DNA from: Candidatus Heimdallarchaeota archaeon
Lineage (GTDB): Archaea; Asgardarchaeota; Heimdallarchaeia; Heimdallarchaeales; Heimdallarchaeaceae
Length of the DNA: 64,000 nucleotides
Assembly (NCBI GenBank): GCA_021399345.1
Contig: JAAFKI010000045.1
Coordinates: 128,001-192,000, forward strand
Reading direction: 5' to 3'
How positions within the stretch are numbered: the stretch's first letter is position 1; each line of letters starts with the position of its first letter. The notes under the pieces are model-generated. The model saw only the letters and a program-made list of their open reading frames with translations. It searched no databases and was not told the origin of the DNA. Of this stretch, positions 2,269 to 56,652 are shown one piece after another. A program made the position numbers and the translations under genes.

Positions 2269-2652
2269 ATGTTAGATTTTATAACTCCTGAGAAGAAGAA
2301 TGAATTATTAATAACACTGCGTGATATTTCAAAGGAATGTAGCTTAAGTGCAATCGCTGTAGTAAGTTCTGAAGGACAAGAAGTAGCATTCTTTGCAGAG
2401 AAAAGTACAGATCAAGTTATCATGTCCGCTTTAGCCTCTGCTCTCAACTCAGCTGGTCAACAAACTGTAAATCAGATTAAGTGTGGAAATTTGGATCAAG
2501 TAATTATTAAAGGATCTGAAGGGTTTGTTATTCTTCTAAATCTTGACCAATTCATTGTCCTTGCTGCATCTAAAGACATTTACACTTTAGCTCTTGCAAT
2601 GACAGTACTTGGAAAATACAGTAAAAAAGTATATCAGATTCTTACGACTTAA
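2269..2652 (+). CDS. Roadblock/LC7 (MglB/LAMTOR-like) domain protein
   Basis: AIAVVSSEG, MSALASAL, LDQVIIKGSEGFVIL follow the Roadblock pattern. ATG at 2269 is preferred over TTG at 2248. Confidence 0.85.
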   Translation: MLDFITPEKKNELLITLRDISKECSLSAIAVVSSEGQEVAFFAEKSTDQVIMSALASALNSAGQQTVNQIKCGNLDQVIIKGSEGFVILLNLDQFIVLAASKDIYTLALAMTVLGKYSKKVYQILTT

Positions 2653-49877: not shown

Positions 49878-50717
49878 TTAAGCCAGAAAAGCTGCTAGTA
49901 ACCACGAAATTGCTATGATAATTACAGCAACCACATTCAGAACAGCATATAGATTGGATGTTTCTTCATTGTAAATGTGATTAACATCTCTTACTATTTC
50001 ATTCAATTTTGTATCAATAGATTCAAGAATGTCTTTACCTTCTCCTCCTTCAGTAAACTGTTCAGTTGAGGTGCTTAAAACATCAATAAATCCATGTAAC
50101 ATTTTTTTGTCAACTTCAAGCAAAGTAGGCGATGTAATTGTATGCAGTTTTTCGTGTAACCGTTTAACTTCTTCTAAAGTTAACTGTGGTATTTCCCATT
50201 TTATATTAAATTCAACTAAATTTGCTAGATGAGTGGTTAAATTATCATAATATATTCCAAAAGGTATGGCCTTGTAATCTAATTCATTAACCAATCTAAA
50301 GAATTTTATTTCTAAATCCTCTTGTTTTGATGATTTATAATATTTCGAAGGGTCAACAACCAATGCTACAGCTTGAGGGAATAGGTTCTGATAGGTTCTT
50401 TGAGTTCCTTTATCTGTTCCTGAGAGGAAGCAACCATATGAAGGATGAGTATGAGCCCAACCAACAATGGTTTCATCCTTATCCCTTTTGTACAAATCTT
50501 CAACAATCTGAACCAGAGCTTCATCACTAAGAACTACATATGTTGATGTTTGTTCTTGTCTTCCAGTATCAAAATCAGTAATTACTAATGTTCCCTCATC
50601 ATTAACATAACCTAACAATAAACCCGCTGATTCTTTTGATTTATCTAACGAATCAACTGCTAGCATCTTAGCTAAAACATATGCGGAAATTAGAATCTCC
50701 TTTTTTGAGTGAGTCAT
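49878..50717 (-). CDS. JAMM/MPN+ metalloprotease with C-terminal coiled coil and TM tail anchor
   Basis: ESAGLLLG, VGWAHTHPSYGCFLSGTD (H-x-H-x7-S-x2-D), ALVVDP; C-terminus YAVLNVVAVIIIAISWLLAAFLA. Confidence 0.9.
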   Translation of the reverse strand: MTHSKKEILISAYVLAKMLAVDSLDKSKESAGLLLGYVNDEGTLVITDFDTGRQEQTSTYVVLSDEALVQIVEDLYKRDKDETIVGWAHTHPSYGCFLSGTDKGTQRTYQNLFPQAVALVVDPSKYYKSSKQEDLEIKFFRLVNELDYKAIPFGIYYDNLTTHLANLVEFNIKWEIPQLTLEEVKRLHEKLHTITSPTLLEVDKKMLHGFIDVLSTSTEQFTEGGEGKDILESIDTKLNEIVRDVNHIYNEETSNLYAVLNVVAVIIIAISWLLAAFLA

Positions 50718-50765: not shown

Positions 50766-51812
50766 TCATATAAAACTATTGATTTCCTTTCCTATAGGTT
50801 GCTCTGTCAGGAAATAGTAAGCGAAATCTTTGAGAAGTTCAATATTTGGATTGTCAGCAGGTAAATTTTGGACTGTGGTTTTATCCAATATATCCATTAA
50901 TGCCCAGATTGCCAAGAATAGGTCTAGAGGAAATCCTTTTGGATAGAGTGTTTCCAACGGTTGAGAGTTTATTTCTCTCAAGTGTACACTGTATCCCAAA
51001 ATGAACTGTTTGATGTCTTCTATGGTGACAGGGATTCCTTTTGATTCTCTATATTCAAGAAATGCTTGTCTCCCGAAAAATGTACCAATATCTTCAAACC
51101 TATCAAATGCCCCTTGCATCCAAAAAGTTGGATCTATGAGAGCTATGTTTAATACTTCGTTCTGAGGAGAAGCTCTAATCATAAGATTACTCTGATGAAA
51201 ATCTCCAAAAGCATCACTTCCACCTTGTGATGAGGATATCATTTCTAGTAAGATTCTTGATTTATCCATTATCTCATGCTCATTTGTTTGACCACCAAAA
51301 ATGGCTAGAACAAGTCTTCGATATAGTTCTTCATAAATGTCTATCATTACAGGACGAGGTTTTCCTTCATGAATTATAGATAAAACATATCCACCCCAGA
51401 AACTCTTATCGTTTACATCATGAGCATCCTCATAATTAATACCTGTAACTCCTTCATAAGCAATGAAAGTTGGAGATTTTAAGTTCACATAGATGTATCG
51501 AGGAATTTTAACAACTGATCTAGTTGAAAACTTTTTCTCCAAAAAAGAAGAATTTCTGATTTCAGTAATAACTTCTGTAGGACTTTCCATGAATTTAATT
51601 GCTAGTTTAGTTTTATGGTTTCCTAATTCAGAACTATAAAAAACATCAATAACATAAACATCACCAAACCTTCCACTTGCCTTATGATATTCAATATCAT
51701 TTATTTTAACTTCTAAAATATCTTTTCCAAATTCTCCGCGTGCTTCATCAATTAAATAATACGAGAAGGAACTGACAAGCTGAATTAATAGAGGTTTGAG
51801 TGATTCACTCAT
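50766..51812 (-). CDS. Protein-kinase-like (APH/choline-kinase fold) phosphotransferase
   Basis: SGRFGDVY loop, LAIKF, GDFHQSNL catalytic loop, ALIDP. Confidence 0.78.
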   Translation of the reverse strand: MSESLKPLLIQLVSSFSYYLIDEARGEFGKDILEVKINDIEYHKASGRFGDVYVIDVFYSSELGNHKTKLAIKFMESPTEVITEIRNSSFLEKKFSTRSVVKIPRYIYVNLKSPTFIAYEGVTGINYEDAHDVNDKSFWGGYVLSIIHEGKPRPVMIDIYEELYRRLVLAIFGGQTNEHEIMDKSRILLEMISSSQGGSDAFGDFHQSNLMIRASPQNEVLNIALIDPTFWMQGAFDRFEDIGTFFGRQAFLEYRESKGIPVTIEDIKQFILGYSVHLREINSQPLETLYPKGFPLDLFLAIWALMDILDKTTVQNLPADNPNIELLKDFAYYFLTEQPIGKEINSFI

Positions 51813-52026: not shown

Positions 52027-53046
52027 ATGAATAACGAAGAAGATTCAAATGAAATGCTAGATTGGAACAAAAAAAATGTTACAAGATTTGCTCAATTTTT
52101 GTATGATTTAGCTAAAGAAAGAGTTCAAACAGATAGAGATACAACAGAATCTACAGAGGAGGACGAAGTTGTTGAAGAATTGATTCAATTAAATGAATCT
52201 TTAGAACAAGAGTTACTTGATGAGCCTCTAGACACACAGAAAGTTGAGGAAGAGATTTTTGAAGAAGAAGATCTAGAAGTTGAAGGAAATTTAGAGCAAG
52301 AATTAGAGGAAGTAACAATTGGATTAGCTAAAGCTGTTTCTGGAGAAGATGTAGGAGAAATTGATGTTAGTGATGAAGAAGAGATTAAGGAAATAATAGA
52401 AAAAGAGCAAATACCTATTCCTTCTGAGAATATTACAATTTCTACTGAAGTTACATTACAAAAAGAAATACTTGAGACACAAGCAAGTATAGAACAAGTC
52501 CAGGAATTCGAAATAGAACAACAGATTGAAGAGCTAGAATCTGTAGATCTCTCGCAACCTATTGTTACTGATCCAGTTATCAATAAGGAAGTTTTTGTGC
52601 AACCCGAAAACATACCTATAGATATTCATAATTTAGTTTTTGTTGAAGAAGCTACAAGTATCCCAATTACTAAAGATGAAATGACAATTACAGATAGTGC
52701 CCAAGAGGCAGAGATTGCCCAAGAGGCAGAGATTGCCCAAGAGGCAGAGATTGCCCAAGAGGCAGAGATTGCCCAAGAGATAGAAGTAATTCAGGAACCA
52801 ATTGCTGAAACTGATTTAGATTTTGAAGCTTCCAGTCGAAGACAAAAAATAATTGATAGCATGTTAGCAGAAACTAAGAAACGAGAAGATGAAGAAGGTT
52901 TCAAAGTAAGAGAACTAGGTGAAACCGAAGGTCGAGCTTATTCTGCTGTTGTCTTCGGAAATGAATCTAATAGGAATATCAAAAAATGGAGAAGATGGGA
53001 GAAAAGAAGATTAAAGGAAGAAAAGAAGAAACGAAAAAGAAAATAG
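52027..53046 (+). CDS. Highly acidic low-complexity protein with basic C-terminal tail
   Basis: Glu-rich 339-aa ORF; helical N-terminus; ends KKWRRWEKRRLKEEKKKRKRK. Confidence 0.8.
   Translation: MNNEEDSNEMLDWNKKNVTRFAQFLYDLAKERVQTDRDTTESTEEDEVVEELIQLNESLEQELLDEPLDTQKVEEEIFEEEDLEVEGNLEQELEEVTIGLAKAVSGEDVGEIDVSDEEEIKEIIEKEQIPIPSENITISTEVTLQKEILETQASIEQVQEFEIEQQIEELESVDLSQPIVTDPVINKEVFVQPENIPIDIHNLVFVEEATSIPITKDEMTITDSAQEAEIAQEAEIAQEAEIAQEAEIAQEIEVIQEPIAETDLDFEASSRRQKIIDSMLAETKKREDEEGFKVRELGETEGRAYSAVVFGNESNRNIKKWRRWEKRRLKEEKKKRKRK
52698..52779 (+). repeat. Coding tandem repeat, 18-bp unit TGCCCAAGAGGCAGAGAT, about 4.5 copies (AQEAEI)
   Basis: Four identical copies plus a 10-nt partial copy, read directly from the sequence. 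Confidence 0.97.
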
Positions 53047-53148: not shown

Positions 53149-54180
53149 ATGAGTGACTTTGAATTACCATGGAACACGTTTGTAGGATTTAGTCTTTTTA
53201 CTTTAGAAGAAGATATGATATTTGATAAAGTTATTAATACAAAAACTGCATTTTCCACGGTTTATCAAGTCATAGATACAAGTACAAAAACAAGAGAAGA
53301 ATTAAAAAAATCTCAAACAATAACTCTAGTTAATGAAGTTTTTAGAGTTGATTATCATTTATTCTACAATATAGTTTTAGCCTGTATGTTTAAACCTGAA
53401 ACTGATGAAAATGTAGCTTTAAACATGATACAGATTATTAAGAATAAGCTTATTGAACAGCTTCAAGATTACGGAACAATTGAAAAAATGGAACCAAGAT
53501 CACAAACTGCATTAATTAAACGTTTGGGAAATTTAATTTCTGAAAGAGCTGCAAGTCAGGTTAAGTATGATTATTTCCCAACTAAAAAACCGCAGGAAAT
53601 AGTATCAGAACCAGTGGAACAACCCAGAGTTGTAGAAGAGAAACCAGTCTACTCACAACCAACATCACAAGCACAAACCTCCACACCTGAAGCACAAGGA
53701 ACGGGTCAAGTAGAAGATTTACTCGAATATATAGGCCACAAAACCGAACCATTATTTCAAGGTGCTTCCGATAGTAAAAAAGTTGAACTTGCTCAAGAAT
53801 TATTAGAACAAGCAAAGAGAGATTCAATTGTAAAAGTAATATCTTCAATTGTCAAGGGTTTATCAACAAAAACAGGTGTTTGTTTTGTTTTTACTGGAGA
53901 CAAAGGTGCTTTAGAAACAATAACCTATGGTATGTCAGAAAAACATGCAGAATTTGTTCTAGGGATTTTATCTAAATATCCAGAAGTTGTTAAACAAACT
54001 ATAGAATCACCAGGTGAAGAAAAAACACTAGATGCTGGTGATGGTGTGGTGATACTTGAAGAAACAGAAAGTGGTATGTTAGTGAGTATCACTAAAAATC
54101 GTGAAGAGATTAGCACAATCTCCAAAAGAATGAAACTTGTAAAAACTATGATTTCTGAGTTCCTAAAACCATCCTTTTAA
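53149..54180 (+). CDS. Longin-like domain, linker and Roadblock-like domain (paralogue A)
   Basis: Predicted beta-beta-alpha-beta-beta-beta-alpha-alpha N-terminus; C-terminal domain similar to those of 54917-55522 and 55687-56652. Confidence 0.65.
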   Translation: MSDFELPWNTFVGFSLFTLEEDMIFDKVINTKTAFSTVYQVIDTSTKTREELKKSQTITLVNEVFRVDYHLFYNIVLACMFKPETDENVALNMIQIIKNKLIEQLQDYGTIEKMEPRSQTALIKRLGNLISERAASQVKYDYFPTKKPQEIVSEPVEQPRVVEEKPVYSQPTSQAQTSTPEAQGTGQVEDLLEYIGHKTEPLFQGASDSKKVELAQELLEQAKRDSIVKVISSIVKGLSTKTGVCFVFTGDKGALETITYGMSEKHAEFVLGILSKYPEVVKQTIESPGEEKTLDAGDGVVILEETESGMLVSITKNREEISTISKRMKLVKTMISEFLKPSF

Positions 54181-54244
54181 TAACCAAATTAAGATTATTT
54201 TGCATAATGCTGTCTCAATATTATTAGGAGAGTGATTAATACTG

Positions 54245-54892
54245 ATGAAAGGAAATCAGTCCAAAGAGATATTTGTTTCAGAAGTTATACGTAGTAATAC
54301 AAAGGATATATTGTCCTTTTTCAAATATATTGAAAAAAACCTACAAAAAGAGAAATTGCATTTAAAAGAAGTCAGTCAAAAGCGTATATTATTAAGTAAA
54401 AAAATCTCCGGAAAATCGATCTATTTTGAGTTTCAAGATACTGAAAATGAAAATTTCTTTCTACTAGAAATCTTTTCCTATAAATTTGTTTTAAATACCT
54501 CTTTACCCAAATGGGTTCAATGGAATTTTTTGGGATTAAAATTAGGAATTTGGTTATTTCTTATTTTAATTGGTGGATTATTGACTCCCCTAATCATATA
54601 TCTTGGATTTAGAGATAATCTTCCTGAAGAATTTCAAAGTATTCTTTTGATTGTTGGGATCATTTTAATGTGTAGTGGTGTAATAGCTTCAGGAGTATTG
54701 TTTATTGCAAATCATATCAGAAGAAATAGAAAGTTTCGAAGAAAATCTGAAGTAGAGAAATTATCAGCTAAAATTTCCAGGTTGATTATGGAATACTCAG
54801 AAAGCACATCAAACAAAATGATTTGTTGGAAATGTTTCAAAGAAATAAGTGTAGGATTGAAAAAATGTCCTGAATGTGGTACAAATACATAG
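54245..54892 (+). CDS. 2-TM membrane protein with C-terminal zinc ribbon
   Basis: Two hydrophobic helices; CWKC...CPECG. Confidence 0.8.
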   Translation: MKGNQSKEIFVSEVIRSNTKDILSFFKYIEKNLQKEKLHLKEVSQKRILLSKKISGKSIYFEFQDTENENFFLLEIFSYKFVLNTSLPKWVQWNFLGLKLGIWLFLILIGGLLTPLIIYLGFRDNLPEEFQSILLIVGIILMCSGVIASGVLFIANHIRRNRKFRRKSEVEKLSAKISRLIMEYSESTSNKMICWKCFKEISVGLKKCPECGTNT

Positions 54893-54916
54893 ATATGTTA
54901 AGTAAACCAAGAAAGG

Positions 54917-55522
54917 TCAAATATCTTCTAATAATAGAGTATTTTCAATAACTACATTTTGCACATGTCTCAGCTTTCTAGAGAGTTCATCCACGTCTTT
55001 TTGTTTTTGAACAATCCCAATCAGATAGTTATCTTTTTGGCAATTTTCTAGAACTACAAAGCCGATTCCAGTATCAAGAACTTTGACTTCTTCATCTGAT
55101 CCCAATAAATCATTGACAACGGGTGGATATCTTCTAAAAATTTCCAATATTTTCTTTACTATATCTCGTTCAAGGGGCCCTCTAACTATGACTCTTACGT
55201 CTGAACTTTCTGGATGTGGCACAAGTGCTGCAGCTGAGAGAGATTTAAAATCTGAAGAAATACTATCAAGTAAGGCATCAATGGTAACTCGTATGGCTTC
55301 CTTAACATCTTCACTTGTAGAAGTTTGTGTTAGAAAATCACGTAAATACTGACCTGACTTGAGTTTCTTTGCTGAAATATTTAAGGCTTCATATGCAATT
55401 TCTTCCATTTCTACGAAAACATCCTTTATTGCAGGTTTTCTTTTTCGTGATGAAATCCTTGAGGAAGGAGAATCACTAGAATCTTTTTGCCTTGTCATTA
55501 TTTTACCACAAAGATAAGTCAT
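54917..55522 (-). CDS. Roadblock-like domain protein with basic, Ser-rich N-terminus (paralogue B)
   Basis: RYPPVV...SDEEVKVLDTGIGFVVLENC is shared with the neighbours. The start may be MTRQK at 55498. Confidence 0.65.
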   Translation of the reverse strand: MTYLCGKIMTRQKDSSDSPSSRISSRKRKPAIKDVFVEMEEIAYEALNISAKKLKSGQYLRDFLTQTSTSEDVKEAIRVTIDALLDSISSDFKSLSAAALVPHPESSDVRVIVRGPLERDIVKKILEIFRRYPPVVNDLLGSDEEVKVLDTGIGFVVLENCQKDNYLIGIVQKQKDVDELSRKLRHVQNVVIENTLLLEDI

Positions 55523-55686
55523 CTTAAAACTCTAAAAAGATTTCCTTATTCTTAACAGCTTTTAGAAATTGGAATCTAAAGGTGGAAGAAGTGTTTTTCA
55601 CAAATTTTCACAATTCATTAGCCAATTAGACACTTGGGATATGTTTATTAGCCAACAATAAGATAATAATATCTAGTTGAGGTCTT

Positions 55687-56652
55687 ATGCCTTTTCGTAG
55701 AAGTGAAATCAATCCATTGGTAGCTGTAATTATCTATGATTTGATAGGAAACAATATCTTTGAGATTGAAAATACAAAAGATGAAATTGAAAAATCAGAA
55801 ATTCATAGTTATTTCATCCATCCTATTGAATTTTACCAGTGGGTCAGAAGATATAATGAAATAACAATTTTTCGAGGAAAGTTCAGAGCCACTTATATTA
55901 CATTTATTGATTTAACTCTATTATTCGTATCAAACGTAGAAAATATCGCAGCTGAGGTTCGTCCTACAATATTAGAATATGTTCAAAAGTTTGGGGAAGA
56001 TGTAATCAAGCATCTTGTTACAGAAGAAAATGTTGATCTTCTAATCAAAACTTGTGGTTCAGATTTTAATAAGAACAAAGAAAGTATCAAGATTCATATT
56101 GATAAAATATTCTCGCGACTTGGAATTGAAAAAATCGAAATTGAATCCATTAAACCTGTTGAAGTAGAAGTTATTCCAGAAACAACAATTACTCAGACTA
56201 AAGCTGAGGTGTATGAAGAAATTCGTCCTTTTGAAACTGTTCCAAAGATTGCAGTCAGTGAGATGACACAAGAAATACTTGATGAAGCAAATAAAAGAGC
56301 AATAACTTCCTTGCTTTTTTCATCCATCAGAGGGTGTAATTTTCCTTCAGCTGCAGCTTATATTTTCCCAAAAGATGATGGATCAATGGGAGAACTATAT
56401 GCAGGAAATCTAGAGGAGAAGAAAATTGTATATGTTTTAGAAACCATTACAAGATTTCCAAAAGTTATTTACGAGATGATAAATTCAGAGGATGAAATCA
56501 AAGCTTTAAATGCAGGAGTTGTTCAGATTATTGTAGAAAATTGTTCTGAAGGCAGAATACTAGTTGGAATGACAACTAATGTACACGATGTTATGAATGT
56601 AGGATACAAATTTAAAATTATCAAACACATTCTAAAAACCATGGGCTTTTAG
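55687..56652 (+). CDS. Longin-like domain, linker and Roadblock-like domain (paralogue C)
   Basis: VAVIIYDLIGNNIF...FRATYITFIDLTLLFVS longin-like start; RFPKVI...SEDEIKALNAGVVQIIVENC shared domain. Confidence 0.65.
   Translation: MPFRRSEINPLVAVIIYDLIGNNIFEIENTKDEIEKSEIHSYFIHPIEFYQWVRRYNEITIFRGKFRATYITFIDLTLLFVSNVENIAAEVRPTILEYVQKFGEDVIKHLVTEENVDLLIKTCGSDFNKNKESIKIHIDKIFSRLGIEKIEIESIKPVEVEVIPETTITQTKAEVYEEIRPFETVPKIAVSEMTQEILDEANKRAITSLLFSSIRGCNFPSAAAYIFPKDDGSMGELYAGNLEEKKIVYVLETITRFPKVIYEMINSEDEIKALNAGVVQIIVENCSEGRILVGMTTNVHDVMNVGYKFKIIKHILKTMGF

Follow-up and report, generated by a model that had tools for sequence, protein, structure and literature searches.

The locus and its genes

The stretch analyzed here lies in a window of 64,000 nt (positions 128,001-192,000 of contig JAAFKI010000045.1; G+C content about 32%) from a genome of the Heimdallarchaeaceae, and coordinates given without a contig label are 1-based positions in that window. 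Four genes occupy positions 53149-56652: A, a gene for a membrane protein of 215 amino acids (aa), B, and C. The products of A, B and C, to which we refer as the trio, possess related C-terminal domains that are predicted to adopt the roadblock fold, and in A and C this domain follows a predicted longin domain. Gene A (53149..54180, plus strand; 343 aa) encodes a longin-order domain (aa 11-142; 53179-53574), an acidic, disordered linker (aa 146-207) and a roadblock-order domain (aa 208-338; 53770-54162), both domains being delineated from an AlphaFold2 model and from structure comparisons with VIA-align. The same build is found in gene C (55687..56652, plus strand; 321 aa), with a longin-order domain at aa 13-145 as judged by its AlphaFold2 model, a disordered linker at aa 151-190 and a roadblock-order domain at aa 195-318 (56269-56640; AlphaFold2 model and VIA-align).

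Gene B is located on the minus strand, and its longest open reading frame extends to position 55522 (201 aa). Nearly all orthologues of B have a length of 193 aa and begin at the second methionine of this frame; the real start is therefore probably Met9, encoded by the ATG at 55498, eight codons inside the longest frame, so that the gene would comprise positions 54917..55498 and encode 193 aa. Its roadblock-like domain (aa 66-201 of the long frame; 54920-55327) was delineated by sequence similarity to A and C, and its N-terminal part contains a polybasic tail (I-S-x-R-K-R-K) followed by a helix region, both of which are conserved.

None of the three proteins contains a hydrophobic segment. Their folded domains are all mildly acidic, and the sole basic part is the N-terminal tail of B, which is also rich in serine (pI 9.7), just as the initial annotation of this DNA had described it. 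The linkers of A and C are rich in proline and glutamate and are acidic (pI 4.4-4.6); each carries a short conserved motif inside an otherwise variable sequence. In A, this motif (V188, L191, L192, I195, G196) is predicted to form a short helix, while in C it reads P-F-E-x-V-P, stands at the end of the linker and directly precedes the first helix of the roadblock-order domain. Homologue searches recovered 67 sequences for A, none of them with a Pfam domain, 72 for B and 48 for C, and every homologue with a named source stems from the Heimdallarchaeaceae or Heimdallarchaeota. B is the best conserved member of the trio, with a mean column identity of 74% in its alignment.

Paralogy of the C-terminal domains

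The C-terminal segments of about 125 residues can be aligned with each other in all three pairings by BLASTP, with E values of 7e-10 for A and B, 1e-16 for A and C, and 2e-14 for B and C; the alignments are nearly gapless and show pairwise identities of 25-27%. The similarity of the three C-termini that had originally been noticed by eye is thus borne out, and the motif segments quoted at that time align as they were written. Fifteen columns are invariant across A, B and C, and eight of these fall into the α2-β3 region (L271-G297 of A), whose shared residues include the signature (K/R)(Y/F)P-x-V(V/I). When the family profiles of A and C were compared with each other, they aligned from about residue 50 to the end (E 1.5e-12). 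No match was found by hhalign between the longin and the roadblock domain within one protein. In the genome under study, only A, B and C match the trio profile significantly.

Predicted folds and structural matches

AlphaFold2 was run for A and for C with separate, independent alignments of the two families (35 and 31 sequences, respectively), and the models were compared with known structures by VIA-align (against 48,161 PDB chains), by Foldseek (against the PDB) and through a shape search of the ESM Atlas. The model of A has a mean predicted local distance difference test (pLDDT) score of 72, with values of 75-91 in its folded parts; the corresponding values for C are 68 and 57-89. Both models exhibit the same order of secondary structure elements, ββ-α-βββ-α-α, a linker of 40-60 residues with pLDDT values below 50, and then α-ββ-α-βββ-α. 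According to a DSSP assignment, the longin part of A consists of strands 11-18 and 23-28, helix 46-55, strands 57-61, 66-72 and 75-81, and helices 87-106 and 116-142; its roadblock part consists of helix 208-235, strands 243-249 and 255-260, helix 264-286, strands 293-295, 300-305 and 309-315, and helix 318-338, with the same order predicted for C. The outer helices of the A domain (α1, 208-235; α3, 318-338) correspond to the flanking helices proposed in the initial annotation.

The N-terminal part of A (aa 10-143) matches longin domains of diverse origin, with the AP2 μ longin at the top (Z 11.1, rmsd 3.0, 116 aligned residues) and δ-COP (Z 10.9), VAMP7 (10.3) and synbindin (9.7) behind it. 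Its C-terminal part (aa 219-343) matches Mon1 (Z 10.2), a Streptomyces Robl/LC7 protein (3leq; 9.8) and MglB (9.6), and attains a Z score of 8.9 to both an MK-D1 roadblock protein and the C-terminal domain of LokiRagO. For the equivalent part of C (aa 198-321), the matches are Mon1 (Z 11.1), MglC (10.9, with 113 of 120 residues aligned at an rmsd of 2.9), the Robl/LC7 protein 3leq (10.0), MglB (10.0) and MP1-p14 (9.6). These roadblock matches of A and C cover nearly the whole target chains. Hence, the suspicion that the hydrophobic pattern of this domain fits the Roadblock/LAMTOR/MglB type finds support in the modeled element order and in the range of the scores (Z 9.6-11.1 to Mon1, MglC, MglB and Robl/LC7). 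A likewise predicted arrangement, in which A and C begin with a longin-like domain that is followed by the Pro/Glu-rich linker, also emerged from the models.

When the A and C models were used as Foldseek queries, the matches were almost entirely longin and roadblock proteins. The top matches of C are subunits of the tri-longin guanine nucleotide exchange factors (GEFs) for Rab GTPases; they are collinear over the full length (333-352 columns), with E values of 4.6e-6 for BLOC-3, 8.7e-6 for MON1A, 4.5e-5 to 9e-5 for Mon1 and 1.9e-4 for Fuzzy, and thereby outrank single roadblock domains such as LAMTOR2 (4e-4) and MglB (1e-3). Among the proteins that the initial annotation had named for comparison, the tri-longin GEFs of the Mon1-Ccz1 type thus provide the best structural match. 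The ESM Atlas shape search led to Robl_LC7 and Gtr1/RagA clusters, whereas a feature search of the same atlas with A remained at scores below 0.9 and yielded leads only.

Judged by these models, A contains a longin-fold domain; the case for C, when considered on its own, is weaker. The domain common to the trio appears to share the roadblock fold, while its sequence does not place it in the Robl_LC7 family (PF03259). For B, the similarity to A and C suggests a roadblock-like domain standing alone behind the polybasic N-terminal extension. Taken together, we regard it as very likely that A, B and C are old paralogues with the folds described here.

Searches of sequence libraries

The domain had been called unrecognized, a description that holds up across the Pfam, NCBIfam and PDB-profile libraries. 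Neither A nor C was assigned to a family in Pfam (E values up to 10) or NCBIfam (E values up to 1), and scans of B against both libraries gave nothing meaningful. PDB profile searches with A, with C and with combined domain alignments produced nothing significant, the best values being those for BORCS7 (E 0.09) and 3leq (E 0.77); the search with A gave no relevant match, and that with C three chance-level matches to NADPH2 dehydrogenase-like proteins (E 1.3-1.4). A hidden Markov model (HMM) built from the three sequences and run against 1.84 billion representative proteins returned ten matches, namely the families of A, B and C, that of a further paralogue (D), and one spurious repeat protein; no true match outside these families was present in this collection.

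Distribution and conservation of the trio

Each of the 30 other genomes of the family has matches to the trio profile. All three genes are present in 25 of the 31 family genomes (including the one studied here), and the remaining genomes have a completeness of 72-91%. The trio resides on one contig in 21 genomes, where it extends over 2-3.6 kb and always has the order A(+) B(-) C(+). This order and orientation are maintained across the five genera of our tblastn synteny table (g1-g5, with g1 being the genus of the window), although the sequence identity drops to 35-48%, and the trio is kept in g2 and g4, where both flanks change.

A broader profile that includes D was used to inspect 400 Asgard genomes. 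It detected four copies in the family itself (30 of 30 genomes), while two sister families belonging to its order (1 of 1 and 11 of 12 genomes) contained D only; apart from one marginal match, no other Asgard family was hit, and about 355 other Asgard genomes were empty. By its detectable sequence similarity, the domain family is limited to one order of the Heimdallarchaeia and the trio to one family. The clustering of the three genes is conserved and extends over five genera, but the term Asgard used in the initial annotation overstates its range.

Paralogue D, a fourth and much more distant relative of A, B and C, is encoded on another contig of the same genome (C41:213441-214346, minus strand). 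The protein (about 307-333 aa) begins with an α/β domain of a different kind, and an acidic linker connects this to a C-terminal roadblock-like domain as in the trio. Its gene occurs as a single copy in three families of the order; both in the genome studied here and in genome G001, its neighbor is a radical-SAM gene of one and the same type. By appearance, D represents the ancestral form, with the trio as its expansion.

Two deviating loci should be mentioned. Genome G004 (C80:1-9450) possesses a rearranged locus with the order Kae1, radical SAM, Bud32, AIRS, B, acidic protein, A and kinase-like protein, in which the segment with A is inverted relative to the other genera and gene C is absent from the contig. 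In genome G026 (C191:2882-3299), either a frameshift or an assembly error has left gene B in two pieces, as frames of 116 and 99 aa that overlap.

Neighboring genes

The gene inserted between A and B (54245..54892, plus strand; 215 aa) encodes a protein with two hydrophobic segments (at about residues 93-124 and 128-158) and a C-terminal CxxC...CxxC motif; its matches to Pfam zinc-ribbon families are weak and lie below the cut-offs. This two-transmembrane (2-TM) protein had been put forward as the membrane anchor of the complex. Its gene is present in g1 and g2 (29-52% identity) and absent in g3, g4 and g5. It is a lineage-specific insert and no core part of the trio, and with an occurrence in only two of five genera we rejected it as a core anchor subunit.

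Directly upstream of A lies a co-oriented gene (52027..53046, plus strand) for a very acidic, repeat-containing and probably disordered protein of 339 aa, and this arrangement recurs in all five genera. The protein is conserved only in its last 70-90 residues or so (aa ~254-338), belongs to no Pfam family, and may belong with the trio. It contains four tandem AQEAEI repeats and ends in a polybasic tail with tryptophan. Divergent from the unit of this gene and A is the gene for an APH/choline-kinase-like phosphotransferase (50766..51812, minus strand; 348 aa). It has no Pfam match; in the ESM Atlas, feature scores of 0.98-0.99 were obtained, and 22 of the 30 nearest clusters carry the APH family PF01636. 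A G-D-F-H-x-x-N motif, typical of the catalytic loops of APH and choline kinases, is present in this protein. The kinase-like gene adjoins the cluster in g1, g3, g4 and g5. The gene downstream of it (49878..50717, minus strand) encodes a JAB/MPN (JAMM) protein (PF01398 JAB, E 6e-16) that ends in a hydrophobic tail, and it adjoins in g1, g4 and g5.

Comparison with known systems

The models suggest that the trio is closest to the subunits of the tri-longin RabGEFs Mon1-Ccz1, HPS1-HPS4 (BLOC-3) and Inturned-Fuzzy (CPLANE) without being a member of that family. In common with them, A and C have an N-terminal longin followed by a roadblock-type domain and constitute two paralogous subunits of one build that are encoded adjacently. 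Not only are the best Foldseek matches of C collinear with such subunits, the roadblock domains also reach Z scores of 10-11 to Mon1. In the Mon1-Ccz1 complex, the paralogues pair domain by domain via continuous β-sheets, and the αX-βX connector between longin domains 1 and 2 is a defining feature of the tri-longin GEFs (PMC8833172). The tri-longin subunits consist of a longin, a roadblock and a lamtor domain; A and C, in contrast, have two folded domains instead of three, and a disordered linker of 40-60 residues appears to take the place of the connector. The linker of A holds one conserved short helix (aa 189-194; V188, L191 and G196 invariant), which is modeled at low pLDDT, and that of C the conserved P-F-E-x-V-P motif. 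Further differences are the lack of sequence similarity and of matches to the Pfam families Mon1, Fuz and CCZ1, the presence of B as a third, roadblock-only subunit, and the lack of a linked Rab-like gene.

With the Ragulator (LAMTOR2/3 and LAMTOR4/5 on LAMTOR1) and the yeast EGO complex, the trio shares several paralogous subunits of roadblock fold, for which heterodimers are to be expected, as well as Z scores of 8.5-9.6 to MP1-p14, the C-terminal domain of RagC and Gtr/EGO; like LAMTOR2/3, its roadblock domains retain the C-terminal helix. It differs in that longins are fused to the domain in A and C, that no lipidated wrapper of the LAMTOR1 type was identified, the acidic neighbor with its basic tail being a speculative candidate at most, and that the Rag-like genes of the genome are not linked to it. 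MglB and MglC, the bacterial regulators of the small GTPase MglA, are also prokaryotic roadblock paralogues, and they match the C domain well (MglC being its second-best match; Z 9.6-10.0 for MglB with the trio domains). However, these are single-domain proteins recognized by the Pfam family Robl_LC7, with mglB usually beside mglA, whereas the trio has no Pfam match, no adjacent GTPase gene and additional longins.

Roadblock and longin proteins have already been described from Asgard archaea (PMC10933270), among them fusions of a GTPase with a roadblock domain and a Roadblock-Longin protein from Lokiarchaeota (PDB 8yqk), so that the general kind of protein is known. The trio has the same two folds and Z scores of 8.2-9.2 to Roadblock2/3 of MK-D1, to a Thor roadblock protein and to the roadblock domain of the Loki Roadblock-Longin protein. 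In A and C, however, the domain order of this last protein is reversed, with the longin coming first; moreover, the trio domains are not recognized as Robl_LC7 and form a three-gene cluster of paralogues in one family. In the searchable literature on Asgard tri-longin, Mon1 and longin, and Roadblock-Longin proteins, no description of the trio family or of its arrangement was found.

Proposed function and alternative readings

Tentatively, and with a chance that approaches an even one, we favor the view that the trio encodes soluble proteins of longin and roadblock fold that serve as a platform for a small GTPase. What we infer beyond fold and paralogy is the formation of a heteromer, the platform role and, possibly, contact with the membrane. 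A, B and C would pair through helix α2 and the edge strand β3 in the manner of other roadblock and longin proteins. This mode of pairing is suggested because the residues common to the three paralogues concentrate in α2-β3, the very element through which roadblock proteins dimerize (PMC10933270). The most likely assembly would be a pseudo-symmetric heterodimer of A and C, with longin facing longin and roadblock facing roadblock, to which B is added. Such a two-layer platform might dock and regulate a small GTPase whose gene lies at another place in the genome, as Mon1-Ccz1-type GEFs, Ragulator or MglB/MglC do, and its client would be found among the Ras-like and Rag/Arf-like GTPases, of which the genome has about 40 and about 22 genes, respectively. 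Membrane contact, if any, would be made by the basic tail of B or by neighboring proteins, and not by the folded parts of A, B and C.

The trio might act as a GEF, as a GTPase-activating protein (GAP) or as a plain scaffold. GAP-type longins (FLCN, SMCR8, NPRL2) are marked by a GP motif just before the second longin strand (PMC12290439). This motif is absent in both families, with L-E-E-D found at this position in the A family and an invariant glycine followed by N, A, I or K, but never by proline, in the C family; we therefore rejected a reading of A and C as GAP-type longins. In its most specific form, our proposal would see the two-layer A-C heterodimer, with B and perhaps D completing the lower layer, as a minimal prokaryotic counterpart of Mon1-Ccz1, BLOC-3 and CPLANE that activates a Rab- or Rag-like GTPase, a version that we consider unlikely.

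A number of observations speak against the platform interpretation or against the structural assignments underneath it. The longin-type profiles of Pfam (Longin, Sybindin, Sedlin_N, Clat_adaptor_s, Fuz_longin, Mon1) match neither A nor C, and an hhalign comparison of the trio domain with the canonical Robl_LC7 proteins that this genome encodes (seven sequences) gave an E value of 0.02 at a probability of 2%; the stretch aligned there is in register, but we count it as no evidence. The longin part of C attained a Z score of only 7.8, to AP-3 σ, and the N-terminal domains of A and C, when compared alone by hhalign, reached a non-significant E value of 0.19, so that it is the two models, and not the sequences, that point to a longin fold in both. 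Among the matches of the C-terminal part of A, a GAF domain (2qyb) is level with the roadblock proteins. The full-length matches of C to tri-longin subunits have rmsd values of 17-22 Å, and the predicted template modeling scores are 0.45-0.52; the likeness is therefore one of domain order only and not of spatial arrangement. Neither the trio nor its immediate surroundings contain a gene of the Ras, Arf or Rag type. The gene for a Rag-like protein of 417-434 aa comes close to the trio in g5 only, at 5.5 kb; in g1 the distance is 36-40 kb, while in g2 and g4 the two are found on different contigs, and we dismissed this gene as evidence for linkage. A canonical Robl_LC7 gene of the same genome (C41:188480-188746), on the other hand, is separated by only about 100 bp from a Ras-like gene (C41:188842-189348). 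Finally, unrelated genes downstream of the trio (AIR-synthase-like, Bud32, radical SAM, Kae1) are also syntenic in three genera, and since such KEOPS genes are equally syntenic, adjacency is weak evidence of a joint function.

This last point also bears on a different explanation, in which the trio is a non-GTPase scaffold or adaptor and forms a local signaling module with three of its neighbors, namely the acidic protein, the APH-like kinase and the JAMM isopeptidase with its membrane-anchoring tail; roadblock and longin proteins might, for example, recruit or regulate enzymes at the membrane, with the serine-rich basic tail of B as a phosphorylation site. The association of the three neighbors with the trio in three to five genera, the acidic gene being invariably co-oriented and directly upstream of A, is in keeping with this idea, as is the lack of a linked GTPase gene. 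Longin and roadblock domains also serve outside GTPase regulation, in SNAREs and dynein light chains (PMC10933270). Yet g2 has neither the JAMM nor the kinase gene in the approximately 7.7 kb of upstream sequence examined. Furthermore, we know of no JAMM or APH system with longin or roadblock partners, which counts against a scaffold of this type, and we judge it to be rather doubtful.

The structural matches invite two further interpretations. That the best matches of the N-terminal domain of A are the longins of AP2 μ, δ-COP and AP-3 μ (Z 10.4-11.1), and that a longin, a disordered linker and a second domain recall the μ-adaptins and δ-COP, might indicate longins like those of the small and medium subunits of coat adaptors (AP σ/μ, COPI ζ/δ) or of SNAREs and the SRP receptor, in which case the proteins would form a trafficking-type adaptor and no GEF or GAP platform. 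The longin subfamilies, however, score within about one Z unit and are effectively tied (sedlin, for example, follows VAMP7 and synbindin at 8.8), the C-terminal domain is roadblock-like instead of a μ-homology domain, and no gene for a solenoid large subunit was found nearby; an adaptor is, in our view, improbable. The C-terminal domain might alternatively sense small molecules in the way of GAF or IclR effector domains, making A, B and C ligand-regulated proteins, and domains of both types do occur among its matches (2qyb for GAF at Z 9.7; IclR effectors at Z 8-9). For C, though, IclR and GAF-type domains fall 2-3 Z units behind the roadblock-type proteins. With its approximately 125 residues and five strands, the domain covers 113 of the 120-128 residues of roadblock chains but only part of GAF and IclR chains, the element order α-ββ-α-βββ-α is that of roadblock proteins, and no output domain is attached. 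We consider a sensor to be very improbable.

Significance

Longin and roadblock domains form the platforms on which the GTPases of eukaryotic trafficking and nutrient sensing are switched, as in TRAPP, Mon1-Ccz1, Ragulator, GATOR1 and folliculin, and Asgard archaea hold many single-domain copies of both. The trio bears on the question of how the multi-domain, multi-subunit regulators of eukaryotes were assembled: it is a compact and strictly conserved set of paralogues in which A and C, by the order of their domains, correspond to the first two-thirds of a tri-longin GEF subunit. If a two-layer GEF of A and C should prove true, the layered longin-roadblock design would have arisen, or would have been built independently, in archaea of the Heimdall group. 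The weight of the trio for the origin of eukaryotes is limited by its range, with the domain family occurring in one order of the Heimdallarchaeia and the trio in one family. Since A, B and C are small and soluble, they can be expressed and examined for assembly and for action on the approximately 40 GTPases.

Canonical roadblock proteins and Rag-like genes

A canonical Robl_LC7 (PF03259) gene with a product of about 134 aa is also located in the window (2344-2565, plus strand), in which no Ras-like gene was found. The genome contains at least six Robl_LC7 genes scoring over the cut-off, some of which stand beside Ras-like GTPase genes on other contigs. A Rag/Gtr1-like GTPase is encoded by a frame of 417 aa about 28 kb past the end of the window (C169:220513-221217). 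Its counterpart in genomes of the Heimdallarchaeum endolithica type (L013:14089-15321), located 5.5 kb from the trio, stands beside a gene for an IFT52_GIFT-domain protein.

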